A DNA stretch of 64,000 nucleotides from a virus, in IMG/VR virus record IMGVR_UViG_3300025732_000017; one strand, written 5' to 3'. This document shows, piece after piece, positions 7,753-31,894 of this stretch. The notes under the pieces were generated by a model. The model made no database searches. It had not been told where the DNA came from and saw only the letters and a program-made list of their open reading frames with translations. Each line of letters begins with the position of its first letter. Position 1 is the stretch's first letter. The translations under genes and the position numbers were made by a program.

Positions 7753-8022
7753 ATGGCAATGTTTATCTATGAAGTCACTAGATCCACGTGGGGTAGTTCT
7801 GGTAACGACGATCAGCCATTTGGCCTCTATGAATCCAAGGATATAGCTGATAAGCTGGCTAAGTCTCTTATGGAGGTTGATTTTCCTGTTACGGTTACCA
7901 TTACACAGCATGAAGTCTTTAGTGAGCCTAAGGTAAACGGAGAATGGAGCGGCAGAAAGAAGTGGCGATATGAAAACGAACACTGGATTCGCTGGGATAA
8001 ATTCTATGGTCACCGAGAATAA
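7753..8022 (+). CDS. Hypothetical protein
   Basis: Cassette ORF; stop is the TAA of the next repeat. Confidence 0.65.
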   Translation: MAMFIYEVTRSTWGSSGNDDQPFGLYESKDIADKLAKSLMEVDFPVTVTITQHEVFSEPKVNGEWSGRKKWRYENEHWIRWDKFYGHRE

Positions 8023-8105
8023 TCCATTGATTCGACTGGGTAATTCTTGCCCTTGACAAAAGGCCCGATCTAGGTTATTCTGTGACTCTGAGAAAGGAGA
8101 TGGTC

Positions 8106-8480
8106 ATGAATCTGAAGGTTCGGCAGCTGGAAACCGCATTGCTCTTTGACAGGCCGACGCCTGTTCCTGAGGGCTTTCGTCTGATCGGCCGAGATGGCTT
8201 TTATTGTCGCGGTGAAGAGGTCTGGTGGGAATACAAGGGCAAGGGCTATCTCTATGGCCAAAGCCTGAATTGCCGCGAGGATTTTGAGTACAGGCTGCGA
8301 GTGAATGATGAGGCCATCCTCATCCCACGCGAGGTGGCGGCCATGAAGACTATTCTGAAGACGACGCGGGATGCCAATGTTCGCAAGGCATTGTCGGCGC
8401 GCCTTCGCCTTCATGAGGAGGCCTATGAACTGCGCCGTATCCGTCGTGGTGTTCGTCGTGTCATGGGACCCGTTGATTGA
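8106..8480 (+). CDS. Hypothetical protein
   Basis: Cassette ORF with AAGGAG RBS. Confidence 0.65.
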   Translation: MNLKVRQLETALLFDRPTPVPEGFRLIGRDGFYCRGEEVWWEYKGKGYLYGQSLNCREDFEYRLRVNDEAILIPREVAAMKTILKTTRDANVRKALSARLRLHEEAYELRRIRRGVRRVMGPVD

Positions 8481-8601
8481 TGGCTAATTCCAGCCCTGAA
8501 GATGCCAATAATCCAGGAAAGATGCCAATTTCGTAACGTATGACGCAAAAGATGCCAATTCCAGGGCGTCAGAGAACACACAGAGACACAGGGAAACGAT
8601 A

Positions 8602-8857
8602 TATGCGCTATACAAAAGCTGACATTCCGCGGCGACCAGGTCGCAATTGGCACAAACGACGCATCATCGGCGGCATATGGATGGCAGAACAGCGATGGTA
8701 CCAAACGCCTGCGCTGCGCACCAGAGAGCGAATGGAGGACCTACAGCACCTCGCCGGACAGCCCAGGCGACGCCAGATGCCAAGGATCCTGCTATCGACG
8801 CTGCTCTGGCACGCCGCCGAGAACCGAAAAAGCCGCCTGAGGCGCCTAAGCCATTGA
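8602..8857 (+). CDS. Arg-rich hypothetical protein (start uncertain)
   Basis: Part of ORF 8540-8857; weak RBS. Confidence 0.3.
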
Positions 8858-8932
8858 TTCCATTAGGTAATTCCAGCCCTTGACAAGGCGCCTGATCTAG
8901 CATATTCTGTGACTCTGATTGCGGAGGTATCA

Positions 8933-9154
8933 ATGTCTCAGACGTTCTACACGGTCCATGTTCCTGACGGCGACGACCCTGGTCTGGGTAATTGGAAGCT
9001 GAGCACGGCCAGCCTGGCTATCGCCTTTGCACAGGATCTCGGCGTCAGGTGTGAGGTCCGAGTCCATGATGGCGACAAGATTCCCATGCGTCTATGCACT
9101 GTTCTCCCTGGGACCTTCGATGGCCATCCTAATCTTATCTGGCCCTATCCGTGA
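8933..9154 (+). CDS. Hypothetical protein
   Basis: Cassette ORF with GGAGG RBS. Confidence 0.6.
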   Translation: MSQTFYTVHVPDGDDPGLGNWKLSTASLAIAFAQDLGVRCEVRVHDGDKIPMRLCTVLPGTFDGHPNLIWPYP

Positions 9155-9259
9155 CGTGGACTTCTAACCCATTGATCTGATTGGGCAATTCCAGCCCTTG
9201 ACAAGGCGCCTGATCTAGCATATTCTGTGACTCTGATTGCGGAAGAGGAAAGGAAACCG

Positions 9260-10159
9260 ATGGCTACCATGAACCACACGGTCAGCTTTGACCGGGCTTG
9301 CGGCAAGTATGTCGCCATGTGCGATGGCAAGGTTGTCACCAAGACCAAGTCGCTGAACCGTGCGAAGCGCCTGCTCCGTATGCACCTCGACGGCCTCCGT
9401 GAGGTTGCCAAGGCTGAGGTTGATGCGGGTCTCAATTTCTCGGTGGCTGATCGGTTCACCTTTCTCGAGGCCCTGACCACGATGGTCGCGAACGGCACCT
9501 CGCCGTCGGCTATTGTCACGGGTGAGGGTGGTATCGGCAAGACGCACACCGTCACCAAGACCCTCGCCTCCATGGGCTTTGTCAATTGCATGGAGATCCC
9601 CGAGGGCGTGTCGGTGCCAACTCGCAAGACCTACACCATGGTCAAGGGCTACTCCACGCCCTATGCGCTGTACCGTACGCTGTGCGAGAATGCCGACCGC
9701 ATCGTGGTGTTCGATGACTGCGACAGCATCCTCAAGGACCCGACGGCCATCAACCTGCTCAAGGCGGCGCTCGACAGCTACTCCAAGCGTATCGTCTGCT
9801 GGCAGTCCGAGGTCAAGGGCTCCGACCTGCCCACGTCCTTCGTGTTCAATGGTGGGGTGATCTTCATCTCCAACTACACGCTGGGCACGCTGGATCAGGC
9901 CGTGCGTACCCGTGCGCTGTGCGTGGATCTGAGCATGACGGCCGACCAGAAGCTGGAGCGCATGGAGCAGATCCTGCGCGAGCCGGATTATCGCACCGAC
10001 GTGTCGCTATCCATGAAGCTGGAGGCGCTGGGTGCGATCCGCGAGAACCTGTCGAAGGTCAAGAACCTGTCGCTCCGTACGCTGAAGCAGGTGATCGACG
10101 TTCGCAAGGGCAACCGCAAGGACTGGGCCAAGCTGGCTCTGTATGTGATGTCCCAGTAA
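9260..10159 (+). CDS. AAA+ ATPase
   Basis: Walker A GEGGIGKT, Walker B IVVFDDCD, sensor FISN, Arg finger RTR. Confidence 0.85.
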   Translation: MATMNHTVSFDRACGKYVAMCDGKVVTKTKSLNRAKRLLRMHLDGLREVAKAEVDAGLNFSVADRFTFLEALTTMVANGTSPSAIVTGEGGIGKTHTVTKTLASMGFVNCMEIPEGVSVPTRKTYTMVKGYSTPYALYRTLCENADRIVVFDDCDSILKDPTAINLLKAALDSYSKRIVCWQSEVKGSDLPTSFVFNGGVIFISNYTLGTLDQAVRTRALCVDLSMTADQKLERMEQILREPDYRTDVSLSMKLEALGAIRENLSKVKNLSLRTLKQVIDVRKGNRKDWAKLALYVMSQ

Positions 10160-10259
10160 CCCCTTGATCTGACACGGTAATTCCAGGGGTTGACAAAGTA
10201 CCAATCCCTGGATATACTGGTACCAAGATTGGAAAACAGGATTCGGGAAAGGAATCTTC

Positions 10260-10442
10260 ATGCTCATTGGAATTTTGAACTACGCTACCTCTTTCATGTT
10301 GGCCTTTGCCGCCGCGTGCTGGAATCGGGGAGGCTGGGCTAATGCGTTGATCATTAGTGCGCTTCTCCTGTTGTCCTTGTTCAATCTAATCCTCGGGGCC
10401 ATGCACTACCCCGGACTCCTGGTGTTGCCGCCAAAACTGTGA
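10260..10442 (+). CDS. Small two-TM membrane protein
   Basis: Two hydrophobic segments; follows cassette promoter. Confidence 0.6.
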   Translation: MLIGILNYATSFMLAFAAACWNRGGWANALIISALLLLSLFNLILGAMHYPGLLVLPPKL

Positions 10443-10559
10443 GAGGCTAACCGAAGGCACTCATACCTAACCACTTGATCTGACACGGTAATTCCAGGGG
10501 TTGACAAAGTACCAATCCCTGGATATACTGGTATCAAGATTGGAAAACAGGAGAAACGA

Positions 10560-11021
10560 ATGGCGTTCATGGATCAGAAGCGGAAGGCGCAGCTCGCGCC
10601 TGGTATCAAGGCGGTGCTTCGGAAGTACGGCCTCAAGGGTTCGCTGAGGGTGGGCAACCACACCTCGCTGAGCCTGACCCTGACCGAGGGTTCGCTGGAC
10701 CTCATCGGTAATGGGGTGGCTGTGCTCCATCGTGAGGCTGACACCTACCCGCATGATATCAAGGGCAAGTGGATGCGTGAGGCGGCTGCCTACATGCAGA
10801 AGACCCAGTCCACGGATGTCAACACCTACCATGCGAAGGATGCGTTCACGGGCGTCTGCCAGAAGGCGATCCTGGAGCTGATCGCGGCGATGAATGTGGG
10901 CAACCACGACGAGTCCGATCCTCAGACTGACTACTTCAATGTCGGCTGGTACATCCATGTGAACGTCGGTCGGTGGAACAAGCCCTACCGGTTCACCGGC
11001 GCCAATCGGAAGGTGGCCTGA
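10560..11021 (+). CDS. Conserved phage protein, paralog of 6188-6634
   Basis: Shared N- and C-terminal motifs. Confidence 0.8.
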   Translation: MAFMDQKRKAQLAPGIKAVLRKYGLKGSLRVGNHTSLSLTLTEGSLDLIGNGVAVLHREADTYPHDIKGKWMREAAAYMQKTQSTDVNTYHAKDAFTGVCQKAILELIAAMNVGNHDESDPQTDYFNVGWYIHVNVGRWNKPYRFTGANRKVA

Positions 11022-11023
11022 TC

Positions 11024-11206
11024 ATGACGCGCAAGCAGCGATTGGAGCAGGCCCTATCCCATCTTGGGAAGGTGGAGGATCTTCTGAATCCCAAGGGTGT
11101 CGTGCCTGGACCGGACATGCTCCTCACCTCCCTGGAGAGGACCATTGAGGAGGTGGAATACCAGCTGGCTATGCTGGAGATGGCGGAAAGTGCCAACCAG
11201 GAGTAA
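11024..11206 (+). CDS. Hypothetical protein
   Basis: ORF; stop is the TAA of the repeat at 11204. Confidence 0.6.
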   Translation: MTRKQRLEQALSHLGKVEDLLNPKGVVPGPDMLLTSLERTIEEVEYQLAMLEMAESANQE

Positions 11207-11296
11207 CTGGTTGATTCCACTCACAAATTTCCACCCTTGACTAGGGTGCCAATACCAAGTATTCTGTGAACATACTGAAAGACAAAGGAGATACCA

Positions 11297-12052
11297 ATGC
11301 GTAACTATGAAATGGTTCTTATGGCCCTGAAGTCGGGCGAGACCAAGACGGCTACGGACCTCAAGGCGGAGCTGCCGGGTCTGGAGTGGTGGAACATGCA
11401 CAAGTATGTGGCGCGTGCCAAGTACCTGGCAGGTGCTGAGATTGAGCTGATGAAGGCTGGCAAGCCGCTCAAGGCTGCCCGTGCGCGGGATGCTGAGACT
11501 CTGCGCCTGGTGAATGCCGACAAGTTCAAGGCCTGGTCGCCTGTCACCAAGACTGGTGGTCCGCTGTTCCGCAAGGCCAACCCGAAGGCCAAGACCCAGA
11601 AGGCCAAGGTGAAGGCTGCGAAGCCTCCGAAGCCTGCGAAGCCGACCAAGACCAAGATCCCTCCGGCGATCCAGGCGAAGCTGAATGCCCAGCATGCCAA
11701 GTCCAACTCGCTGATCGCCGCTGCGATGGCGAAGGATCCGTGGCTCGGTCGTCGTGGCCGTGTCACCCAGGAGGCTACCAATCTGGTCAATCCGGTGGCG
11801 CCGCCCGATCAGCCCGGTCATGGTGAGCTGAAGGGTGCCAATGTCGTGGATATGATCAAGGCTGAGCTGGCTGCGACTGCGCCGGCGAAGGGTACCAAGA
11901 AGGCTGCTGCTCTTCCGCGTGGTCCGAAGGCGACGCCTGCGCCTGCTCCGGTCAAGGTCGAGCGGGTGTCGGATGTGGTGACTCCGCTGTCGGATGATCC
12001 GCTGGACATTCCGGACTTCCTCCGTATCAAGTCCACCAAGACGGAGGAGTGA
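11297..12052 (+). CDS. Lys/Ala/Pro-rich basic protein, H1-like tail
   Basis: KAKTQKAKVKAAKPPKPAKPTKTK; strong RBS and promoter. Confidence 0.7.
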   Translation: MRNYEMVLMALKSGETKTATDLKAELPGLEWWNMHKYVARAKYLAGAEIELMKAGKPLKAARARDAETLRLVNADKFKAWSPVTKTGGPLFRKANPKAKTQKAKVKAAKPPKPAKPTKTKIPPAIQAKLNAQHAKSNSLIAAAMAKDPWLGRRGRVTQEATNLVNPVAPPDQPGHGELKGANVVDMIKAELAATAPAKGTKKAAALPRGPKATPAPAPVKVERVSDVVTPLSDDPLDIPDFLRIKSTKTEE

Positions 12053-12055
12053 GGA

Positions 12056-12205
12056 GGCGCCCAGCACAACCCTGGGCTAGCGTGCTTCCGCGCGAATAAA
12101 GCAGGTGGTTCCTGCAGGAAGGCAAGTCTGCTCGGCGTAGGAGCGACGGTGGGATGGGCACCGCAGGTTAGCCGGACAAAGGGATCGGACTAACCACCCA
12201 TCACC
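12056..12205 (+). ncRNA. Candidate structured RNA
   Basis: Consecutive hairpins plus a long interrupted stem (ggtg/gatggg/ggttag vs ctaacc/cccatc/acc). Confidence 0.4.
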
Positions 12206-12296
12206 TAAGCCCTTGATCTGATTGGGCAATTCCAGCCTTGACAAAGTACCAATTCTCGCCTATACTGGTACCAAGATCGGAAAGAGGAGAGCAGAG

Positions 12297-12518
12297 ATGG
12301 TTCGCAAGTATACCAACATGGTTCTGGAGATGGTTGAAGAGGGCATCCTGGACAAGGATGTGGTCATCATGGCCTGCCTGAAGTACATGTCGGAGGCTGA
12401 GGTCCGTGACATGGCCGAGGCGAACGGGTTCGTCCCCGAGGATGAGGAGGAGGAGATTCGGTCCGACTATGAGGCCAATCGCACCTATGAGCGAGTGCGA
12501 GTGGTGGCTGGGCAGTAA
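12297..12518 (+). CDS. Hypothetical protein
   Basis: Cassette ORF; start corrected to follow the RBS. Confidence 0.65.
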   Translation: MVRKYTNMVLEMVEEGILDKDVVIMACLKYMSEAEVRDMAEANGFVPEDEEEEIRSDYEANRTYERVRVVAGQ

Positions 12519-12607
12519 GCCCTTGATCTGATTGGGCAATTCCAGGGCTTGACAGAGCGTCAATTCTCGCCTATACTGAGTTCATGATCAAGCAAAGGGA
12601 GACGGTG

Positions 12608-12853
12608 ATGCAGACGTTCCGTGTTGATATCGACCTCGACGGCGATAGCACTATTGGCGAGTTCCTGGAGACTCTCGCGGAGTATCGCGGCTCGGCGCAA
12701 ATTGTGTCCTATGACGCGGCTCCCGACGCTGGCGGTTGCCCGACGATGGTGCTGGAATTCACGTCCTATGAGGTTGCGCTGGAGTTCGCCATGGAATGGT
12801 TCGGCGAGTCGTTTGAGGATGCCAAGGAGTACGTGGAGACGATTACGGTGTAA
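12608..12853 (+). CDS. Acidic protein, paralog of 16858-17109
   Basis: MQTFRV.IDLD...YDA.PDAGG...EFTSYE...EYVETITV. Confidence 0.75.
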   Translation: MQTFRVDIDLDGDSTIGEFLETLAEYRGSAQIVSYDAAPDAGGCPTMVLEFTSYEVALEFAMEWFGESFEDAKEYVETITV

Positions 12854-12941
12854 CCCCTTGACCTGACAAGGCTTTTCCAGGGCCTTGACAGCGCCCTGGT
12901 TTCGCCCTATACTGGTACCAAGATCGGAAAGGGAAACAGAG

Positions 12942-13115
12942 ATGACCAAGACCAAGACCCCGACCAGGAAGCCCCGCAAGCCCACCATCCTCTCTTCCTG
13001 GGAATGGTCACAGTATCATCAGCAGATGATCGAGTACCTCGAGGAGAAGCTGGAGCGCAGGGAGCAGAAGATCGCGCAGCTGGAACGCCAGATCGAGCGC
13101 CTGCAGGGTAAGTAA
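12942..13115 (+). CDS. Small coiled-coil protein
   Basis: Cassette ORF; basic N-terminus. Confidence 0.6.
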   Translation: MTKTKTPTRKPRKPTILSSWEWSQYHQQMIEYLEEKLERREQKIAQLERQIERLQGK

Positions 13116-13200
13116 CCCATTGATCTGACACGGCTTTTCCAGGGCTTGACAGAAGCCTGATCCAGCCCTATACTGGTACCAAGATCGGAAAGGGAAACAG

Positions 13201-13941
13201 ATGCAGACGAACCTCCTCACTCGCGGCAACCCCAAGGTCCTGAAGGGCGAGAGCCAGGGCTACCTGACCTTCATCCTTCACCTGGCGCCGGCGTCGCTGT
13301 CGGGCTACAACACCTGCGCCGCGGCGACTGATGGCTGCAAGCTGGCGTGTCTGAACACCGCTGGTCGTGGTGGCATTCCCAATGCTCGCCCCGTGACCGT
13401 GCAGGCTCGCAATGGTGCCATGACGGTGTCCAACGTGATCCAGGCGGCTCGCATCCGCAAGACCGTGTGGTTCTTCCAGGACCGCGTCGGCTTCATGGCT
13501 CAGCTGGTCAAGGAAATCCGTGCGGGCATCCGCTATGCTCAGAAGATGGGCCTGATCCCCGTGTTCCGTCTGAATGGCACCTCCGATCTGCGCTGGGAGA
13601 GTGTCGGTGTGGATGGTGCGCGCAATGTCATGGAGCTGTTCCCGGACGTGCAGTTCTATGATTACACCAAGCTGTCCAATCGCAGGGACCTGCCTGCCAA
13701 CTACAAGCTGACCTTCTCCCTGGCGGAGAATAACGACCTCCAGGCGTGGGCTGCTGCTTCGGCTGGTCTGAACGTCGCTGCGGTGTTCCGTGGCAAGCTG
13801 CCCGCGACCTTCATGGGTCGCACGGTGATCAATGGTGATGACTCGGATCTGCGTTTCCTTGATCCGGTGGGTGTGGTGGTTGGTCTGAAGGCGAAGGGCA
13901 AGGCGAAGCGGGACACGACGGGCTTTGTGAGGGCTGCCTAA
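13201..13941 (+). CDS. GP88-family protein (radical-SAM-like Cys motif)
   Basis: NTC.....GC...C, RLNGTSD, FYDYTK, DLRFLDP motifs. Confidence 0.75.
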   Translation: MQTNLLTRGNPKVLKGESQGYLTFILHLAPASLSGYNTCAAATDGCKLACLNTAGRGGIPNARPVTVQARNGAMTVSNVIQAARIRKTVWFFQDRVGFMAQLVKEIRAGIRYAQKMGLIPVFRLNGTSDLRWESVGVDGARNVMELFPDVQFYDYTKLSNRRDLPANYKLTFSLAENNDLQAWAAASAGLNVAAVFRGKLPATFMGRTVINGDDSDLRFLDPVGVVVGLKAKGKAKRDTTGFVRAA

Positions 13942-14029
13942 GCCATTGATCTGATTGGGCAATTCCAGCCTTGACAGAGCACCAGTTTCGCCCTATACTG
14001 GTACCAAGATCGGAAACAAGGAGACAGCG

Positions 14030-14263
14030 ATGGCCAAGTCCAAGACCAAGTCCAAGACCAAGTCCAAGACCAAGTCCAAGACCAAGGTCTATGTCGTGCT
14101 GAATGAGTCGAAATGGCCCACGACGGTTGTGGGTGTGTTCAGTACGCGCGGCCTCGCCATGGCAGGCGCCAAGAAGGAGCGCCAGAAATGGCCGAACATC
14201 GGGATTCTTCGGATTTCCCATCACATGGTTGATAATCCCGAATGGTACGTGGGAAAGCCTTGA
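14030..14263 (+). CDS. Basic protein with KSKT repeats
   Basis: aagtccaagacc x4 perfect copies at 14036-14083. Confidence 0.65.
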   Translation: MAKSKTKSKTKSKTKSKTKVYVVLNESKWPTTVVGVFSTRGLAMAGAKKERQKWPNIGILRISHHMVDNPEWYVGKP

Positions 14264-14345
14264 TCTGACACAGCTTTTCCAGGGCCTTGACAGAGCACCA
14301 GTTTCGCCCTATACTGGTACCATGATCGGAAACAAGGAGACAGCG

Positions 14346-14603
14346 ATGACCAAGATCCGCTTCACGGCCCCCTCCCCTCGCGCCGACCGCATCCACGGCC
14401 TGACCAAGATGGGTCGCGCCATCGTGGACTACTTCGCGGCTCGCCCGGGTCAGGTGATCTCCCGCACCACGGTGGAGCTGCACCTCGCCTCGCGTGGCTT
14501 CAAGCGCCCCGCGGTCACCGCGACGGTCTGCTCGGATCTGGCCCACTCGGGTCATCTGAAGCCGATGCCGTTCGGCATGTACCAGTTCCGCGCTGCGGCC
14601 TAA
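14346..14603 (+). CDS. Possible winged-helix protein
   Basis: Cassette ORF; helix-turn-helix-like layout. Confidence 0.5.
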   Translation: MTKIRFTAPSPRADRIHGLTKMGRAIVDYFAARPGQVISRTTVELHLASRGFKRPAVTATVCSDLAHSGHLKPMPFGMYQFRAAA

Positions 14604-14617
14604 GGAAAGGATTGATC

Positions 14618-14728
14618 ATGCATACCATCACGTTCCTCGCTCAGTCGCTGGCTCTGGCTGGTGTTCTGTTCGCCGCTGGCGTCGGCCTGGTCGCGCTGAT
14701 CGGGTTCTTCGCTGATCGCAACCGCTAA
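14618..14728 (+). CDS. Single-TM micropeptide, 36 aa
   Basis: MHTITFLAQSLALAGVLFAAGVGLVALIGFFADRNR; AAGGA RBS. Confidence 0.55.
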   Translation: MHTITFLAQSLALAGVLFAAGVGLVALIGFFADRNR

Positions 14729-14739
14729 GGAGCAAGACC

Positions 14740-15021
14740 ATGTTTAGGATCACCGAAGGCAGGGGTTTTCAGATGACGTTCGCAAACGGATGGACGGTCT
14801 CTGTCCAATGGGGTGCTGGCAATTACTGTCCGAACCACCACGTCCTTCCGTCTGGTAAGTCGGAGAGGGCTTATGAAGATATGCAGCGTAAGCTGGGCGA
14901 GGAGGGCGTGCTTGTCGCGGAGGCAGGCTGGTGGAAGGGCTCCGGTGACGTGGAGGTTAGTGGTTTCATGACGCCCGACCAGGTTCTGGCCCTCATGGTC
15001 GAGCTGGCAGCTAGGGAGTAA
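14740..15021 (+). CDS. Conserved phage hypothetical protein
   Basis: GFQMTFANGWTVSVQWG..NYC motif; RBS. Confidence 0.65.
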   Translation: MFRITEGRGFQMTFANGWTVSVQWGAGNYCPNHHVLPSGKSERAYEDMQRKLGEEGVLVAEAGWWKGSGDVEVSGFMTPDQVLALMVELAARE

Positions 15022-15025
15022 GACC

Positions 15026-15115
15026 GTGGTCTGCATTTCCGTGGACACGCTGGCTCTGTTCGCATTTGGTATCAGTCTGGTCGTGCTGGCTCGACTGATC
15101 ACCCGCAACCGCTAA
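15026..15115 (+). CDS. Single-TM micropeptide, 29 aa
   Basis: GTG start, GGAG RBS, ends RNR like 14618. Confidence 0.5.
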   Translation: MVCISVDTLALFAFGISLVVLARLITRNR

Positions 15116-15125
15116 GGAGATGCAC

Positions 15126-15221
15126 ATGGATTGCCTTCAGCCGCTAGTTTTCTTTCTGACCTACGCTGCGGTGCTCGGCATCGCCGTGTGGGTTGTAATC
15201 GCCATCCGTAATGAGGAGTAA
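15126..15221 (+). CDS. Single-TM micropeptide, 31 aa
   Basis: AAGGAG RBS; hydrophobic core. Confidence 0.55.
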   Translation: MDCLQPLVFFLTYAAVLGIAVWVVIAIRNEE

Positions 15222-15225
15222 GATC

Positions 15226-15423
15226 ATGACAATGGATTCCAGGGAGCTGGCGAAGGCGCTGGCTGAGAAGGCGAAGGCTGCTTCCATTCCCTATTCGGAG
15301 TATGAGGCGAAGGTGGACTATCCGTTCGCCCTGGGCTATCTGACAGGCACCGTGCAGGATCTTCTGCTCCGCCTGTCGCCAGGCCAGCGCGAGACTATTG
15401 CGAAGCAGTACGGTATCAGCTGA
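15226..15423 (+). CDS. Hypothetical protein
   Basis: GAGGAG RBS. Confidence 0.6.
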   Translation: MTMDSRELAKALAEKAKAASIPYSEYEAKVDYPFALGYLTGTVQDLLLRLSPGQRETIAKQYGIS

Positions 15424-15433
15424 GGAGACAGAG

Positions 15434-15664
15434 ATGACCGAGACCCTGGAGCTGGCGAAGGCGCTGGCTGAGAATGAAGAGCTGCGCGTGGCCAATAAAG
15501 AGTTGGTGTTGGGTATCACCACCATAACTCTCCGCCTTCTGGAAGATATTGATCGACAGCGCGCGGAGAATGAAGGGCTGCGCGCGGAGAATGAAGGGCT
15601 GCGCGCAGAGCTGCGCCAGGCGATCAAGGAGCTGGCAGATTGTGAACAGTTCAGCGACTACTAA
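15434..15664 (+). CDS. Coiled-coil protein with 21-nt tandem repeat
   Basis: RAENEGL x2; GAGGAG RBS. Confidence 0.6.
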   Translation: MTETLELAKALAENEELRVANKELVLGITTITLRLLEDIDRQRAENEGLRAENEGLRAELRQAIKELADCEQFSDY

Positions 15665-15775
15665 CTCGCCGGCTCCGACCGCTAACCCCTTGATCTGACA
15701 CGGTAATTCCAGCCTTGACATAGGCCTGATCCCACCCTATACTGAGTACATAAGGTGGAAACAAGGAGACGACAG

Positions 15776-15985
15776 ATGACCCAGATCCCCGCAACCAAGG
15801 TCTATATCCTCTTCGTGGAAGAGACCGCGCATGGTGGTTGGGAGTGGGAGACCCATCTCCATGGTGTATATGCGACGCGGGAGAAGGCTCAGGAGGCCCG
15901 TAAGGCTCTCGCAGCCAAGAGGGCGTTCTCGATTCGCTGCGGTGAGTGGAAGTCGCGCATCCGCGCTGTGCCTCTGCATGCCTAA
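15776..15985 (+). CDS. Hypothetical protein
   Basis: Cassette ORF. Confidence 0.65.
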   Translation: MTQIPATKVYILFVEETAHGGWEWETHLHGVYATREKAQEARKALAAKRAFSIRCGEWKSRIRAVPLHA

Positions 15986-16077
15986 CCCCTTGATCTGACA
16001 CGGCAATTCCAGCCTTGACATAGGCCTGATCCCGCCCTATACTGAATACATAAGTTGGAAACACAAGGAGACGACGA

Positions 16078-16404
16078 ATGGCGAAGCTGCTGATCCAGAC
16101 CCAGGTCTATGAGAACTACGGCGCCCATGATTGGAACGGCGAGGGCGAGTGCCCGCAGTACTGGAAGCCGAAGTTTGGTTCGGACTACGTCCTTCCCAAT
16201 TTCACCGCCTTCACCGACGCGGCCTCGGTGGTCGAGGCGCTGAAGCCTCAGGTGGAGGCCAACGACCACAGCTGGCGCGAGTGGATCATCCACTGGGAGG
16301 TGCTGGCCGATGACCAGCCGACGCCCTGGGAGGCCGACCAGCTCCGCTGGGATGGTCGAGTGACCTTCCCAGCCAAGGTCCTCACCCTCCCGGTGGCGGC
16401 CTGA
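16078..16404 (+). CDS. Conserved phage protein
   Basis: TQVYENYGAHDW.GEGECPQYWK.K.G..Y motif. Confidence 0.7.
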   Translation: MAKLLIQTQVYENYGAHDWNGEGECPQYWKPKFGSDYVLPNFTAFTDAASVVEALKPQVEANDHSWREWIIHWEVLADDQPTPWEADQLRWDGRVTFPAKVLTLPVAA

Positions 16405-16423
16405 ACGGAACAAGGAGACAGAG

Positions 16424-16767
16424 ATGACGCAGACCTTCGATTTCGGCTTCGGCCCTGTCCCGGCTCACAAGCACCCGAATGGCGGTGGCTGGGTCGCCGA
16501 CACCGCTTATGTCGCCGACACCGCTTATGTCGGGCCTGATGCTCGGGTCTTCGGCAATGCTGTGGTCGGCAGCAATGCTCGGATCTACGGCTATGCTCGG
16601 GTCTACGGCAATGCCTGGGTCTGCGACGATGCTCGGGTCGGCGACAAGGCTCTGGTCTCCGATATGCTATAGTCAACGGCAATGCTGTGGTCTCCGGCAA
16701 TGCTGTGGTCGGCGGCAGCGCTTGGGTCGGCGGCAATGCTTGGGTCACCGAGGGTACTCACACCTAA
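16424..16767 (+). pseudogene. Hexapeptide-repeat (left-handed beta-helix) protein with frameshift near 16664
   Basis: VFGNAVVGSNARIYGYARVYGNAWV repeats continue in the -1 frame (AIVNGNAVVSGNAVVGGSAWV) to TAA 16765. Confidence 0.6.
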
Positions 16768-16857
16768 CCCATTGATCTGACACGGCAATTCCAGCCTTGA
16801 CCTGGCGCCAGATCCGCCCTATACTGAGTACATAAGTTCGAAACAAGGAGAGCAGAG

Positions 16858-17109
16858 ATGCAGACGTTCCGTGTTGTGATAGACCTTGACAGCGAGTGGA
16901 CTCTTGGCGAGTTCCTCAACCTGCTCTCTGAGCATGGCTCGCCGCGGATTGTGTGCTATGACGCGACTCCCGACGCTGGCGGCAGCCCGATGATGATCCT
17001 TGAATTCACGTCCTATGAGGATGCGCTGGGGTTCGCCCAGCTTTGGTTCGCCGAGGACGAGGCGCCATCGCGGATGTCGGCGGAGTACGTGGAGACGATT
17101 ACGGTGTAA
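16858..17109 (+). CDS. Acidic protein, paralog of 12608-12853
   Basis: Shared motifs. Confidence 0.75.
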   Translation: MQTFRVVIDLDSEWTLGEFLNLLSEHGSPRIVCYDATPDAGGSPMMILEFTSYEDALGFAQLWFAEDEAPSRMSAEYVETITV

Positions 17110-17192
17110 CCCCTTGATCTGACACGGCTTTTCCAGCCTTGACAGAGGCCTGATCGGGACCCTATACTGAGTACATGATCAAGGAGACAGAG

Positions 17193-17537
17193 ATGACCCA
17201 GACCTTCACTGCCCCGCACGACCTCGACCTCGCGCTGACGGCCTACGCCGATGCGCTGGAGCAGAAGCGCACCGCGGCGGCCAACATGGCCAGCTACCAC
17301 GTGTCGGTCACCTTTGAGCCCGGGTCCAAGTACCTGCGCGTGGTGATGGCTGATGGGTACAGGACCACGGGCACGCACCGGTCCGCCTACGCCTTCATCG
17401 TGGCGAAGGACATGGGCCAGTTCAAGGTGGGTGACATCCTGAAGGCGGCCTCCTGGAAGGCTCCGGCCAAGAACTTCGCCCGGGGCAATGTGTTCCGCCC
17501 GGAGACCTACGCGAAGCACAGCCCGTACGGGCTTTGA
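17193..17537 (+). CDS. Conserved phage protein, paralog of 4088-4429
   Basis: FEPGSKYLRVV..SAYAFI..GDILKAASWKAPAKN..RGNV. Confidence 0.75.
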   Translation: MTQTFTAPHDLDLALTAYADALEQKRTAAANMASYHVSVTFEPGSKYLRVVMADGYRTTGTHRSAYAFIVAKDMGQFKVGDILKAASWKAPAKNFARGNVFRPETYAKHSPYGL

Positions 17538-17557
17538 TCCGAACCAAGGAGTCTATC

Positions 17558-17740
17558 ATGAACCAGCCGACCAAAGCCTTCCTCATCCAGCTCCGCGACC
17601 TCTGCCGCGCCCATGGCGTGGATTTCTCTGCTGACCTGAATGGCGTGTCCTTCACCAGCGCCGATGAAAGCCCGATCTACTGGGTCCACGCCGACGTGGA
17701 GAGCCTCGAGGACCTCGAGGCCCAGCTGGCGCAGGACTGA
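17558..17740 (+). CDS. Hypothetical protein
   Basis: AAGGAG RBS. Confidence 0.6.
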   Translation: MNQPTKAFLIQLRDLCRAHGVDFSADLNGVSFTSADESPIYWVHADVESLEDLEAQLAQD

Positions 17741-17833
17741 TCTAAGCCATTGATCTGACACGGCTTTTCCAGCCTTGACCTGGCGCCAGATCCGCCCTAT
17801 ACTGAGTACATGATCAAGGAAAGGAAGACAGAG

Positions 17834-17914
17834 ATGAACCGGATCGTGATCGCCTGCCACCTGTTCAATACGGCCGTGGCTTTTACCTACCTCGCGACGT
17901 GGCTGTTCAAGTAA
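17834..17914 (+). CDS. Hydrophobic micropeptide, 26 aa
   Basis: Directly behind promoter 17775 and RBS. Confidence 0.5.
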   Translation: MNRIVIACHLFNTAVAFTYLATWLFK

Positions 17915-17946
17915 GCAACCACCCCATCCCAACCAAGGAGATCCCT

Positions 17947-18660
17947 ATGACCGTGACGTATCACGACCACTCCACCACCCCCTTCACCTACCGCACCGAC
18001 GCCTTCAAGGGCGCGACCCTGGCTGTCTGGTCCGAGTGCATCCGCATCATGTCGGATGTGTGGGCGCACGAACAGCGCGCCCTGGTGTGGGATGAGGAAG
18101 CCGGCAAGTTCGGCACCCTCTCGCTGGACAATTCCGAATTCTCCAGCAAGACCCAGCCCCAGCACGCCACCGTGGACGCGCCGGCCGAGCTGATCGCCCG
18201 CTACCGCGATTCCGTCATCGCCCGCAACCACACCCGCCTCCTCGAGGCCTTCAAGGCCAAGAAGGAAGAGGAGCGCATGGCCGTCCGCACCGGCGCCGTC
18301 GTCCTGGTCAAGCGTGGCCGCAAGGACATCGGCAAGGTGGGGAAGGTGGTCTTTATCAAGGACATGCCCTACTCCACCGGCTGGCGCTCCCACCTGGCGC
18401 CCAAGGCCTGCATCGCCCTCGATGGTCAGAAGACCACCGTCCAGGGCCGCTATGGCAAGACCTTCGACCGCTACACCAACACCATCTGGGTGTGGGTGAA
18501 GAACCTGGACCTGGCGAAGGTGCCGGCGCCCTATGAGGTCACCGACGAGGATCTGGCGCGCATCCGCCAGCAGGCTGAAGCCGAGGCTGACATGCAGCTG
18601 ATCCGCTGGGGCATGAAGGAGGTGTCGTGGCGCAAGCCGGCGAGCTGGCAGGCAGCGTGA
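17947..18660 (+). CDS. Protein with KOW/SH3-like central domain
   Basis: TGAVVLVKRGRKDIGKVGKV; AAGGAG RBS. Confidence 0.6.
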   Translation: MTVTYHDHSTTPFTYRTDAFKGATLAVWSECIRIMSDVWAHEQRALVWDEEAGKFGTLSLDNSEFSSKTQPQHATVDAPAELIARYRDSVIARNHTRLLEAFKAKKEEERMAVRTGAVVLVKRGRKDIGKVGKVVFIKDMPYSTGWRSHLAPKACIALDGQKTTVQGRYGKTFDRYTNTIWVWVKNLDLAKVPAPYEVTDEDLARIRQQAEAEADMQLIRWGMKEVSWRKPASWQAA

Positions 18661-24713: not shown

Positions 24714-25154
24714 TTCTCCTCTAGTCAGAACCAATACACAGATCAAGGACAATCTGCGAGAATTGTCCAAAGCAATTCATGCATATCAGCAGTCATTGGA
24801 CAATGCTGTCGCGGAGATTGAGTTTCTTGAAAAGCAGAGGCTTCAGCTGCAATATCAAATTGAATTTGCATTTACATTTCCTGATGGCGAGTCTTTGTCA
24901 TTGGAACAGTTGGCTGACGATTATTATCGTCTGAAAAAGCAGGTCGGTGAATGGTGACTGAATTTGATCGCATCATGAACAAGATCTCGGATCGTCAGGA
25001 TGGTCGCATCTATCAGATGTGGCGAGCATGGATGGTGATGCCCGAGCCTAGATTACAGTTCCATGAAATTATCTCCAGGGAGTTTGGTTTGTCATTGAAT
25101 GAGGCCTACATACTGGTGAGGCACTTATTTCCTTCAAACAGGAGTGGTCAATGA
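24694..25154 (+). CDS. Two hypothetical proteins (24694-24957, 24951-25154)
   Basis: Overlapping operon ORFs. Confidence 0.5.
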
Positions 25155-26098
25155 AAAAAATCATAATCTCTACACTATCAGTTCTCTTTAGTGCGTCCGT
25201 TTACGCTCAAACATTAGATCCAAACTTGAAAGCATACTCATCGGTACCAGCTGTATCAGGAACCATTAAGTCAATCGGTTCTGATACACTCAACAATCTG
25301 ATGACACTTTGGGCTGAAGGTTTTAGAAAAGTTTATCCAAATGTTCAGATTGAAATTGAAGGAAAAGGTTCTTCTACTGCTCCACCAGCTCTCGTAGCAG
25401 GAACAGCTCAGTTTGGTCCAATGAGTCGCCTAATGAAAGGCGCTGAGATTGATGCATTTGAAAAGAAGTTTGGTTATAAGCCCACAGCTATCAATGTTTC
25501 CCTTGACAGTCTAGCTGTCTATGTTCACAAGGATAATCCAATCAAGTGCTTGACCCTTCAGCAAGTTGACGCCATCTTCTCCAAGAATCGTCGCGGCGGT
25601 TATGTAGGGGATATTACTAACTGGTCTCAAGTTGGTGTGACCAACGCAGGAGTCATGAGTATTTATGGTAGAAACTCTGCATCTGGAACTTATGGGTTTT
25701 TCAAGGAAACCGCTCTATTCAATGGCGACTATAAGGATTCTGTAAAGGAACAGCCAGGAAGTTCTACGGTGGTGCAAGGAGTTGCATCTGATAAAAACGG
25801 AATTGGCTATTCTGGTATTGGGTACAAGACTGCTGACGTTCGCGCAGTTCCAATTGCAAGCAAGCCAGGAAGCGAATGCTTTGAGGCAACCGAAGAAAAC
25901 GTGCTGAGTGGCGACTATCCTCTAGCAAGATTCCTCGTTGTCTATGTAAACAAGAATCCAACCCAAAAGATGGATCCTCTGAGACTTGAATTCATCAAGT
26001 TCATTCTTTCTAAAGAGGGACAAGAAGTAAACATCAAGGACGGTTACTATCCAGTAACTTCTGCAATAGTTGAAGATGAACTAAACAAAGTAAAGTGA
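25151..26098 (+). CDS. pstS: Phosphate-binding protein PstS
   Basis: Signal peptide; GSDT, GSSTA, RNSASGTYGFF, YPLAR motifs. Confidence 0.93.
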   Translation: MKKIIISTLSVLFSASVYAQTLDPNLKAYSSVPAVSGTIKSIGSDTLNNLMTLWAEGFRKVYPNVQIEIEGKGSSTAPPALVAGTAQFGPMSRLMKGAEIDAFEKKFGYKPTAINVSLDSLAVYVHKDNPIKCLTLQQVDAIFSKNRRGGYVGDITNWSQVGVTNAGVMSIYGRNSASGTYGFFKETALFNGDYKDSVKEQPGSSTVVQGVASDKNGIGYSGIGYKTADVRAVPIASKPGSECFEATEENVLSGDYPLARFLVVYVNKNPTQKMDPLRLEFIKFILSKEGQEVNIKDGYYPVTSAIVEDELNKVK

Positions 26099-29107: not shown

Positions 29108-29207
29108 GTGATTAGTCCCATTTCTCCCGTGTATAGAACAGTATTCAACACCAAAAGAGGATCTCGCGAAAATGCAGGATCCTCTTTGTCATTTCAGAGA
29201 GGCGTAC

Positions 29208-29906
29208 ATGTCAAAGAAAAAGAAGAGACTGCAAAACCAGCAACAGCAAAATCATTTCTCTCTACGAACAATCTCTCCACTAACACTCAATCAATCATCA
29301 ACATTCAAGGCCTTTGAGCAGGGCAAGCACCTTCTTCTACACGGCGTCGCAGGCACAGGCAAGACATATATCTCTCTCTATCTTGCACTAAACGAGGTGC
29401 TAAACAAATCAAGATACAAACAAATAGTCATCATACGAAGTGTCGTTCCATCACGCGACATGGGATTTCTTCCAGGAACTGCAAAAGACAAAGCCAGAGT
29501 CTATGAAGATCCATACAAGATGATTTGCGATGATCTTTTCAGTCGTGGTGATGGATATGAGATTCTAAAGACCAAGAGACTTGTAGATTTCAATACGACA
29601 TCATTCTTGCGCGGTGTTACATTCAATGATGCGATCATCATTGTTGACGAATGTCAGAACATGATAGGTCAGGAATTGGATACTGTGATGACTCGCGTTG
29701 GAAACAACTGTCGTATTGTTTTCTGTGGTGACTTTAGGCAAACTGATTTGGCCAAGCATGAGGAAAAGCGAGGACTCTTGACATTCATGAATATTCTTGA
29801 TAAAATGTCTTGTTTTGAAAAGATTGAGTTCGGAAAGGAAGACATTGTTCGTTCCGCACTTGTCAAATCATACATTATTTCCAAACTGGAGTTAGGATAC
29901 GTTTGA
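29208..29906 (+). CDS. phoH: PhoH-family ATPase
   Basis: GVAGTGKT, MGFLPG, FLRGVTF, VDECQN, GD..Q.D, DIVRS.LV. Confidence 0.93.
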   Translation: MSKKKKRLQNQQQQNHFSLRTISPLTLNQSSTFKAFEQGKHLLLHGVAGTGKTYISLYLALNEVLNKSRYKQIVIIRSVVPSRDMGFLPGTAKDKARVYEDPYKMICDDLFSRGDGYEILKTKRLVDFNTTSFLRGVTFNDAIIIVDECQNMIGQELDTVMTRVGNNCRIVFCGDFRQTDLAKHEEKRGLLTFMNILDKMSCFEKIEFGKEDIVRSALVKSYIISKLELGYV

Positions 29907-29907
29907 T

Positions 29908-30069
29908 ATGTTGATTTATGCTGCGCCTTTGATCATTTGGATGATCATGCAATTAATGAGGACAATCATGCTCACTTGGCCAAATGCATTCAATGCTTGG
30001 ATGTGCGTCTTTACATATTTGGCAATTGGATTGATTTTCCTAAACTTCTTGTTTTCATTGGCACAGTAA
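29908..30069 (+). CDS. Small membrane protein, 53 aa
   Basis: Hand-translated; two hydrophobic segments. Confidence 0.5.
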   Translation: MLIYAAPLIIWMIMQLMRTIMLTWPNAFNAWMCVFTYLAIGLIFLNFLFSLAQ

Positions 30070-30722
30070 TGAAGAAGTTTCGTCATGCATTTGTGAATCT
30101 TCCGCAGTTGACGGAAGAATATATTGACGGAAGGAGACACTACAAGACTCCAGAAGGTAATGTGTATCCTTCCGTCACTACCATTCTCTCGCGTCTACCA
30201 AACGAAAGTTTGCGTGAGTGGCAAAAGAGAGTTGGTGAAGAAGAAGTAAATCGTGTTTCCAAAGTATCTGCTCGTCGTGGCACCAATCTTCATGAAATAT
30301 GTGAGCGATATCTATTGAATGAAGAAAGACCGATGCGTGGACACATGCCGGATGTTCAAGGCATGTTTGTAGAATTGTGCAAGTATATTGATCGGATAGA
30401 TGAGATTTATGCGATTGAAGCACAGTTGTATTGTGACACATATCAATTTGCCGGACGATGCGATGTCATTGGTACATTTGATGGGCATCCTGCAATCATG
30501 GACTTCAAGACTACGAAGTCTGAAGTTGATTCCAGCATGGATAAGGTCAAGAAGTATTTCATGCAGTTATCCGCATATTCTCTTGCGTTTGAGGAAAGAA
30601 CTGGTCAGGAAATAAATCTTGGTGTGCTGTTGTTTGCATCCAATGAGACTGAACCTAGTTGCATTCAAGCGGACTTGACCAAGTACAAGATGGAATTTAT
30701 TTCAGTTCTTGACAATCCCTAA
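30069..30722 (+). CDS. PD-(D/E)XK (RecB/Cas4-like) exonuclease
   Basis: YPSVTTIL, RGTNLH, AGRCD, IMDFKT, QLSAY. Confidence 0.85.
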   Translation: MKKFRHAFVNLPQLTEEYIDGRRHYKTPEGNVYPSVTTILSRLPNESLREWQKRVGEEEVNRVSKVSARRGTNLHEICERYLLNEERPMRGHMPDVQGMFVELCKYIDRIDEIYAIEAQLYCDTYQFAGRCDVIGTFDGHPAIMDFKTTKSEVDSSMDKVKKYFMQLSAYSLAFEERTGQEINLGVLLFASNETEPSCIQADLTKYKMEFISVLDNP

Positions 30723-30737
30723 ATATTAGATTATACT
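30709..30737 (+). promoter_or_regulatory. sigma70 promoter for tmRNA
   Basis: TTGACA-17bp-TATACT. Confidence 0.85.
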
Positions 30738-30743
30738 ATGGAT

Positions 30744-31070
30744 ATTGCTGTTGATGACGACGCAATAAGCAGGCTGGACCCGGCTTCAATGCCGGCATCT
30801 CCACCAGTAGATACAATGTGAGGGGCTAGTTGCATGGCACACGCGAACAGAGTGCAACCCATCACATAATAGTCGCGATAAAGGTGATGAGCATTGTATC
30901 TACTAATGGGGATGTAAGGGATCGACAGATGCGTAAAGGTTGTCGGAGGTAATCGGTAAGGAACGACCGTCAATTAGTCCAAACAATAGATGCAAACGAT
31001 AATTACGCATCTGAGATGGCTCTAGCAGCCTGAACGGGGTTCGGTGGGGACCTGGCAACAGAATCCCACC
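30744..31070 (+). ncRNA. ssrA: Circularly permuted (two-piece) tmRNA
   Basis: T-arm CCGGC/GCCGG plus CATCTCC-ACCA ending 30806; GGGGATG at 30908 gives G3-U70; tag ANDNYASEMALAA* at 30992-31033; outer ends approximate. Confidence 0.92.
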
Positions 31071-31100
31071 ACTTTCATAAATCGTAGAGGAGTAATCACG

Positions 31101-31283
31101 ATGACTGAAGTATCTTGCTATGTTATGCGACCATTGTCTTTCGCAACTGATAACGAATGCACCTATAAGAATCTGCGTTCGGTCAATTTGAATCGTGCCA
31201 AGAAGCAGAAGAATGTCTATAAACTTTCTTATGGACAGTATGGCACGGAAAATTATGTTTGCTATCTAGCAACACGCGACTAA
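31101..31283 (+). CDS. Hypothetical protein
   Basis: GAGGAG RBS. Confidence 0.55.
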   Translation: MTEVSCYVMRPLSFATDNECTYKNLRSVNLNRAKKQKNVYKLSYGQYGTENYVCYLATRD

Positions 31284-31288
31284 TTACC

Positions 31289-31894
31289 ATGAAGAAACTA
31301 CTGGCAATAGGATTAGTCCTATTGGCTAGCACTCTTGCTTTGAGACAGTATCCATACGATACTGCGCCAAAAGCCTATGCTCAATTACCCGACACAGACA
31401 AGGTTTATGAGTATAGACACGAACTTCCAGATCTTAGCGAGTATAAGCTGGAAGAGCCTGAGATCAAGATGGTATATGTTGATCCGAAGGAAAGAGAGTG
31501 TTTGGCTAAGGCGATATATTGGGAGGCTCGCAATCAGTCCCTTGATGGAAAGATTGCGGTTGGCTTTGTCGTGATCAATCGTGTCAATGCTGGTCTATGG
31601 CATGACAGCGTTTGCAAGGTCGTGTTTCAAGGTTGCCAGTTCTCTTGGGTTTGCACAGCAAATGCAAAGAAGAATCCTGCAAATAACAAGAACTACGACG
31701 AGCAGATTGCGTGGGCTGAATCAATTGCCCTTGCAAACGAGTTACTTTCAGAGTATAATGAAATTCAAGACGTTACATATGGTGCGGTTTTCTTTCATGC
31801 TCACTATGTGAGACCAGATTGGTCAAAGTGGAAGAAGGTTGAACGTACTGTGCGTATTGATGATCATATCTTTTATCGTTTGAGGTCCATGTAA
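31289..31894 (+). CDS. SleB-type cell wall hydrolase (Hydrolase_2)
   Basis: CLAKAIYWEAR, V.NRV, CQFSW, FFHA.YV.P.W, HIFY; N-terminal anchor. Confidence 0.88.
   Translation: MKKLLAIGLVLLASTLALRQYPYDTAPKAYAQLPDTDKVYEYRHELPDLSEYKLEEPEIKMVYVDPKERECLAKAIYWEARNQSLDGKIAVGFVVINRVNAGLWHDSVCKVVFQGCQFSWVCTANAKKNPANNKNYDEQIAWAESIALANELLSEYNEIQDVTYGAVFFHAHYVRPDWSKWKKVERTVRIDDHIFYRLRSM

Follow-up and report, generated by a model that had tools for sequence, protein, structure and literature searches.

A conserved three-way-junction RNA in the gap of a two-piece tmRNA gene from a T4-like phage

What lies between the two halves of a split tmRNA gene? This discarded part of the gene is treated as filler. At the locus described here it is a segment of 101 nt, and comparison with its homologues shows a strongly conserved, single-copy and portable RNA fold. 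Within the collections searched, this fold was limited to aquatic T4-like phages, all of them uncultured. The window (the whole stretch of DNA analysed, 64,000 nucleotides) is part of a 196,948-base IMG/VR virus record, IMGVR_UViG_3300025732_000017, rated 100% complete. T4-type baseplate, gp5-like, gp59, and gp32 proteins are encoded, and the source is a 197-kb T4-like phage. By the baseplate wedge protein, the nearest cultured relatives are the pelagimyophages Mosig and HTVC008M and the OM43 phage Melnitz (40-43% identity). The whole genome carries 34 tRNA genes and the tmRNA, and a search of all of it found no SmpB gene.

Three protein-coding genes frame the locus:

29937-30722 (+): PD-(D/E)XK exonuclease, the upstream neighbour, used as synteny anchor for 23 related phage loci
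31101-31283 (+): downstream ORF of 60 aa with a GAGGAG ribosome-binding site, without family match
31259-31894: cell-wall hydrolase, after the 60-aa ORF

Elsewhere in the window there is a phosphate-transporter-subunit-like gene (25151-26098, PHROG 5385) and a PhoH gene (29172-29906), auxiliary genes typical of aquatic T4-like phages. The region 8000-18000 has 56-60% G+C versus 32-45% in the rest of the phage, and its ORFs match phage families of no assigned function (PHROGs 1250, 10415, and 1617; Pfam GP88). This block may have been acquired horizontally, as an island, or result from a chimeric assembly.

At the level of gene calls, ARAGORN and two Rfam models agree on a circularly permuted alpha-type tmRNA at 30744-31073 (+). 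It is the single gene that ARAGORN reports in the 64-kb window, with the tag ANDNYASEMALAA, and the Rfam scan of the same 64 kb matched two families only: RF01849 (alpha_tmRNA) at 30705-31073 with 127.1 bits against a gathering cut-off of 50, and RF04321 (tmRNA_permuted) at 30744-31033 with 109.5 bits against a cut-off of 47, both over the full length of the model. These matches bear out a reading of the sequence made without database searches (hereafter, the sequence-only reading), which had proposed a phage-encoded two-piece tmRNA with an alphaproteobacterial-style tag. The gene order is permuted, as the T arm, the acceptor 3' strand, and the CCA all precede the acceptor 5' strand and the tag frame. 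The parts are as follows:

30709-30737 (+): sigma-70-type promoter, TTGACA-17 nt-TATACT, with 11/12 consensus matches; the stretch aligns to the first positions of the Rfam alpha_tmRNA model
30744-30806 (+): acceptor piece of the tmRNA, 63 nt, including the helix-2 5' strands (sequence, ARAGORN, Rfam)
30780-30795 (+): T arm, CCGGC-UUCAAU-GCCGG, with a 6-nt loop at 30785-30790 (sequence, Rfam alignments)
30796-30802 (+): acceptor 3' strand, CAUCUCC, followed by the discriminator A (sequence)
30804-30806 (+): encoded CCA (sequence)
30908-31073 (+): coding piece of the tmRNA, including the helix-2 3' strands and the tag frame (sequence, ARAGORN, Rfam)
30908-30914 (+): acceptor 5' strand, GGGGAUG, in which G3 pairs with U30800 to form the G3:U70 alanine identity pair
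30992-31033 (+): tag reading frame with GCA resume codon, ANDNYASEMALAA, and stop TGA at 31031-31033 (ARAGORN, 281-322 of a gene starting at 30712)
31043-31048 with 31065-31070 (+): alpha-type 3' hairpin, GGUGGG/CCCACC (sequence, Rfam)

The predicted transcription start, at about 30744, coincides with the first base of the RF04321 match. The piece boundaries proposed earlier, with CATCTCC-ACCA ending at 30806 and GGGGATG starting at 30908, are exact in the sequence. GGGGATG and CATCTCC form the 7-bp acceptor stem, including G3:U70, and relatives show a compensatory A:U to G:C change in it (GGGGGTG/CACCTCC). By script, 22 relatives were found to have both the T arm and the acceptor stem with its G3:U70 pair, with compensatory changes. 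The tag frame has the pattern of a tmRNA: an alanine resume codon, a hydrophobic end in LAA, and a stop codon directly after it.

The T loop departs from the canonical 7 nt. It was already read as a 6-nt loop (TTCAAT), and UUCAAU, closed by C:G, is indeed one base short in both covariance-model alignments, where it appears as a deletion; related lineages keep it with compensatory stem changes. Since the stem covaries in relatives, the arm looks functional, and we treat the short loop as a deviation and not as a ground for exclusion. A 6-nt loop with C:G closure is common to the window's clade and to two other loci (L169 and L239), whose stems covary, while most of the other phage alpha-type tmRNAs examined have 7-nt loops of the GGCAGUA or GUGCAAU type.

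The exonuclease anchor gave 23 related loci, and all 21 that were scanned with Rfam carry a tmRNA. A tag-word scan of viral sequences added about 80 further loci. Among 185,579 species genomes, a degenerate pattern of the tag retrieved one record only (JAFMJQ010000169.1), a 4.1-kb contig binned in a Thermoleophilia MAG, with a phage-type tmRNA, a 76-nt spacer, and the same tag as the window. Probably, this contig comes from a phage and was misbinned.

A phage two-piece tmRNA is by itself of a known kind, as published work shows: an alpha-type one was described in Melnitz, together with 53 two-piece tmRNAs among 18,146 phage genomes, mostly aquatic (PMC9004378), and a tmRNA database lists 79 phage tmRNAs and also records permuted genes in which the intervening sequence contains a complete tRNA-Ala gene or, in a gene of 1152 bp, a repetitive element (PMC11915505). 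What is new here is the content of the spacer.

Is the spacer unusual in its length? The sequence-only reading held it to be far longer than the short loop of Caulobacter, and an unusual length stands only if the yardstick is the alphaproteobacterial consensus of Rfam: there, about 28 positions separate CCA from GGGG, and the window has a 73-nt insertion relative to it. It does not stand among phages. A script applied to IMG/VR relatives, which asked for a 7-bp acceptor stem containing G3:U70 together with a T arm and, further downstream, a tag, yielded 46 distinct phage tmRNA spacers of 12-266 nt (median 81), 11 of which exceed 101 nt; in the cultured phages the spacer measures 142 nt in Melnitz, 44 in Mosig, and 49 in HTVC008M. 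Thus, an exceptional length was rejected, as 101 nt is unremarkable in this range.

What most phage spacers share is their closing stem. In about 38 of the 46, whatever the interior, a stem of 9-15 bp starts 0-1 nt after the CCA and ends 4-5 nt (UGAU or UAAU) before G1. The closing stem is therefore a general feature of phage tmRNA precursors, and part of the spacer structure may serve only precursor folding. This observation opens a first alternative for the 101-nt segment, namely a cis-acting aid to folding or processing. The closing helix would hold the tmRNA ends, or neighbouring tRNAs, in register, insulate them against misfolding, present the CCA end and the RNase P site, and then be degraded. 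Besides the frequency of the CCA-adjacent stem, the same flanks occur in tRNA arrays, and in the fold of the full precursor the closing stem stacks on the acceptor stem. Against it, other phages achieve the same with a simple hairpin of 29-30 nt.

At the structural level, the segment has the following layout:

30807-30907 (+): intervening segment, 101 nt, a copy of a three-way-junction RNA family (covariance model R1, 113.8 bits; the model was partly built from the window's clade, so that the score is not an independent test)
30807-30818 with 30892-30903 (+): P1, a perfect 12-bp closing stem
30819-30828 (+): J1/2, UGAGGGGCUA
30829-30835 with 30852-30858 (+): P2, GTTGCA(T)/(G)TGCAAC, loop at 30836-30851
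30859 (+): J2/3, C
30860-30865 with 30884-30889 (+): P3, CATCAC/GTGATG, loop at 30866-30883
30872-30879 (+): self-complementary centre of the P3 loop, GUCGCGAU, a candidate kissing-dimer site
30890-30891 (+): J3/1, AG
30904-30907 (+): leader, UAAU

The perfect 12-bp closing stem was thus read correctly. The two inner hairpins and the three-way junction that had been proposed with it depend on the comparative data. Thermodynamic folding of the window copy gives a minimum free energy of -30.0 kcal/mol versus -27.2 for the three-way junction, which lies 2.8 above; alone, it keeps only the closing stem (mean pair probability 0.87), prefers a different interior, and assigns P3 a low predicted pair probability. 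We consider the three-way junction of the spacer supported by comparison among homologues and not by thermodynamics.

For this comparison, 30 distinct sequences were gathered through two word scans of IMG/VR, one metagenome scan, and an nhmmer profile; the use of exact-word scans biases the sample towards conserved cores, and the effective number of independent sequences in the build of R1 is 1.36. Covariation was computed on a MAFFT alignment of 21 sequences. On it, the three-way junction pairs 96.8% of the cells and shows double-sided changes in 18 of 25 pairs, which upholds both inner hairpins. The changes fall in 11 of 13 pairs of P1, in 6 of 6 of P3, and in 1 of 6 of P2, where the remaining pairs are invariant. 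RNAalifold arrives independently at these three helices and extends P2 by a seventh pair, which covaries. Covariation among the phage homologues thus supports all three helices, and for the nearly invariant P2 the support is mainly conservation plus two covarying pairs.

Controls in which the 3' partner was slid by 1-3 columns paired 23-49% of the cells. None of 500 shuffles reached the observed cells paired, the double-change pairs and cells, or the covariation score, and 15 of 500 reached the observed count of further pair types. Moreover, there are about 26 G:U cells versus about 8 A:C cells, an excess that indicates the tmRNA strand. At another phage locus (L081), where the tag differs and the T loop has 7 nt, the spacer measures 99 nt and aligns with that of the window over its whole length, with compensatory changes in all three helices and conserved loops. 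From this comparative evidence, we regard the spacer as a well-supported structured RNA family that is not yet catalogued.

The unpaired parts, about 45 bases, are the most conserved, and J1/2, the P2 loop, and the P3 loop are near invariant over the 30 copies. J1/2 reads UGAGGnGCUA, the P2 loop GGCAnnnnnGAACAAAG (also given as GGCA...GAACAAAG), J2/3 CC, J3/1 GAG, and the P3 loop rUAAUAG-xxxxxx-AUAAAr. A search by eye found no covariation for tertiary pairs between loops, since the loops barely vary. All full copies have a self-complementary P3-loop centre, spelled in six ways: GUGAUCAU, GUCGCGAU (the window), GUGUACAU, GUGGCCAU, CGUACG, and CCUGCAGG. A palindrome in a hairpin loop cannot pair within that loop, and a loop-loop contact between two copies of the RNA is therefore the simplest reading, which suggests a kissing dimer. 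Folding or processing in cis leaves both the conserved unpaired bases and this covarying self-complementary loop unexplained.

The family is not confined to tmRNA genes. Its copies were found in four settings:

Spacers of tmRNA genes: about 19 distinct copies, with at least 10 different tags, including ANTNVLAMSAAA, ANNNVAYAVAA, VNDNVAHDYALAA, ANDNDAFEYRLAA, and ANDNVVIEDIRLAA
Between tRNA genes of phage arrays: 6 copies, for example between Thr and Met (L242), Arg and Leu (L226), and Glu and Thr (L153 and L244)
Intergenic beside protein genes, free-standing: about 4 copies, without tRNA-like flank
In an odd tRNA-like split gene: 2 copies (L160 and L253)

Between tRNAs, 0-4 nt separate the module from the encoded CCA upstream of it, and 4-5 nt (AUAU) from the first base of the tRNA downstream. 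Among the tmRNA spacers, the lineage with the tag ANTNVLAMSAAA (L151 and L248) holds the same three-way junction. Exactly one module was counted in each of the six phage records searched whole, and the four records that carry it outside the tmRNA gene each have a permuted tmRNA elsewhere.

Within the window's clade, the same tmRNA and tag come with four unrelated spacer forms, of 101, 76, 84, and 82 nt, and R1 does not match the 76-, 82-, and 84-nt spacers of sister phages with the same T arm and tag. As these sister phages carry unrelated spacers with the same tmRNA, the module is, by this comparison, dispensable for tmRNA maturation. The earlier suggestion that the excised piece could be a processing timer finds no support here. 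The other suggestion of the sequence-only reading, a separate small RNA, is favoured, as the module also occurs between tRNAs and free-standing, once per phage record.

Several arrangements around these copies are recorded here as side observations. In the two odd split genes (L160:1768-1865 on the minus strand, and L253:1-91), a T arm, an acceptor 3' strand, and a CCA precede the module, GGGGCUU and a D-arm-like segment with complementary ends follow it, and the outer ends are joined by a 9-bp pairing of AGGAAUGUU with AACAUUCCU. They may be permuted tRNA-like or tag-less tmRNA-like genes without an ARAGORN call. In L228 (2180-2520), three cassettes follow one another with a common closing stem, AAAACAyAyUG...CAGUGUGUUU, and UAU/AUAU flanks; their interiors differ, the three-way-junction module is the middle one only, and short tRNA-like hairpins ending in GCCA separate them. 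The 82-84-nt spacers of sister tmRNA genes (L019:4741-4824 and L022:3370-3451) contain a T-arm-like word, GGTTCGAATCC, which may be the remnant of a tRNA. In the phage of the window, the array of 34 tRNA genes lies outside the window (G000:C1:47900-60100 of the same record). Stable folds are predicted for many of the 48-251-nt spacers that lie between adjacent tRNAs in it, and one spacer holds a TTGACA/TATAAT promoter; none of the spacers of this array matches R1.

The distribution bears on two alternatives. For the cis-acting aid, the free-standing copies beside protein genes have nothing to process, and a single copy per genome is at odds with the many tRNA junctions available. We therefore rate such an aid as unlikely, albeit the strongest of the competing explanations. 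The distribution could also be that of a selfish or neutral insertion, a functionless palindrome-ended mobile element or recombination scar in tRNA-like junctions. The perfect terminal inverted repeats fit this, as do the different sites in different phages and the other inserts at the same site in sister phages. However, the module is single-copy in 6/6 records, its helices covary with G:U pairs, which agrees with selection on one RNA strand and not on DNA repeats, and the unpaired loops are the most conserved parts. We give this explanation very little credence.

We searched for known relatives of the module in several collections. Ribozymes, riboswitches, and other families of Rfam 15 gave no match to the spacer at E up to 10, apart from a chance miRNA hit of 12.7 bits. 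Rfam found neither GOLLD nor ROOL in the window, nor a glutamine riboswitch such as that of Melnitz in the window or the spacer. In 50,697 GenBank phages, blastn found nothing with either the tmRNA gene or a module copy from a tRNA array, and R1 had no match in Mosig, Melnitz, HTVC008M, phiM19, and C48C1. Homology to T4 rnaC and rnaD was rejected: with filters off, R1 matched neither and its best hit, of 10.5 bits, was elsewhere in the locus. A full-text literature search for the conserved words of the module returned unrelated primers only. The motif may be listed, unnamed, in a published catalogue of 10,006 viral candidate RNAs (PMC10690425).

These searches also bear on a catalytic or ligand-sensing module, either a self-cleaving ribozyme that would free the upstream CCA end or an aptamer that would gate processing, which corresponds to the timer of the sequence-only reading. 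The module starts right after the encoded CCA, and a stable helix at that point would be an obstacle to 3' exonucleases; its dense conserved junction and loop bases are typical of both classes, and theta ribozymes beside phage tRNAs provide a precedent (PMC10879173). On the other side stand the lack of any Rfam ribozyme or riboswitch match and the free-standing copies without an upstream CCA. The topology and the junction sequence led us to reject a hammerhead or HDV-like reading: the 5' and 3' ends are paired in P1, unlike in HDV-like ribozymes, and the junction strands misfit the hammerhead core. Besides, a CCA end that carried a 2',3'-cyclic phosphate could not be charged. We consider a catalytic or sensing role improbable, more so than a cis-acting aid and less so than a selfish insertion.

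How would the segment become an RNA of its own? A host-type sigma-70 promoter would give a precursor of about 330 nt. Its acceptor and coding pieces pair into a tRNA-like domain, with the G3:U70 visible in their letters. By the known tmRNA and tRNA pathway, RNase P would cut after the UAAU leader at G30908, and 3' processing would free the encoded CCA end at 30806. A leader ending in AU is a good context for RNase P. Two-piece processing, alanylation, and SmpB-dependent tagging are inferred for this tmRNA: host AlaRS and host SmpB would use the two-piece RNA and add ANDNYASEMALAA to stalled proteins. Because of the two predicted events, 5' of G30908 and at the CCA end, the module of about 100 nt would be released. 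The gap of a tmRNA gene, or in other phages that between two tRNA genes, would thus give the module a place in the transcript where tRNA-processing enzymes set it free as a separate RNA of about 100 nt. This RNA would probably act in trans, possibly as a homodimer through its self-complementary loop.

The comparative data show the spacer to be a conserved, portable three-way-junction RNA and not mere filler. Its most likely identity, judged from conservation and genomic placement, is a small RNA released by tRNA-type processing. That the released RNA is a functional product which acts in trans and may dimerise is, in our estimate, an even bet. A further step is tentative and we hold it to be possible but doubtful: an undescribed class of phage small RNA, a kissing-loop homodimer made via tRNA-type sites, that would serve specifically to commandeer or safeguard the translation or tRNA apparatus of the host, for instance as a regulator or a decoy.

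If the RNA is stable and active, it would be a new phage non-coding RNA tied to tRNA clusters, beside T4 species 1 and 2, GOLLD, and ROOL. The functions of these RNAs are long-standing puzzles. With about 100 nt, three helices, and a candidate dimer interface, the module is small enough for direct biochemistry and structure work. In that case, phages would also be exploiting tRNA-processing sites more generally, as places from which other RNAs can be released.

Among known systems, the two-piece tmRNA of Caulobacter and other Alphaproteobacteria, as far as PMC9004378 (citing Keiler, Shapiro and Williams 2000) and RF01849 describe it, has the same permuted order and a precursor cut by tRNA-processing enzymes, to which we liken the gene of the window. 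The window gene matches the alpha-specific 3' element of RF01849 (GGUUCGG...ACCUGGCAACAGAA) well, whereas the 5' hairpin of that model is missing. Melnitz, Mosig, and HTVC008M (PMC9004378) are closer, as all are T4-like myophages with the same gene form, an alpha-type model, and an ANDN-type tag. Melnitz has an equivalent sigma-70 promoter (TTGACA/TATAAA), a spacer longer than that of the window, and a glutamine riboswitch downstream of the tmRNA and not in the spacer, which the window is without. The T loops of the three phages have 7 nt versus 6 nt in the window, and their spacers are unmatched by R1.

Other phage RNAs resemble the module in their setting. The T4 stable RNAs species 1 and 2 (rnaC and rnaD) are also small RNAs placed head-to-tail with tRNA genes in a T4-type phage, but they are not homologous to the module and fold differently. 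Theta (HDV-like) ribozymes (PMC10879173) are likewise structured RNAs directly downstream of phage tRNA 3' ends; they form a double pseudoknot instead of a three-way junction, and no model match links them to the module. GOLLD and ROOL (PMC12286853) are phage-encoded non-coding RNAs, often near tRNA islands, that self-assemble through kissing loops. They measure 500-800 nt and build cages of 8 to 14 copies, whereas the module has about 100 nt and gives a hint of no more than a dimer.

Finally, the cargo genes of PMC11915505 are a parallel for the gap itself. They show it to have room for other sequences, among them a functional RNA gene whose product the same processing would set free. Each is an isolated example, either of a tRNA or of a repeat, whereas the cargo in the window is an unnamed, widely conserved fold that is not a tRNA.
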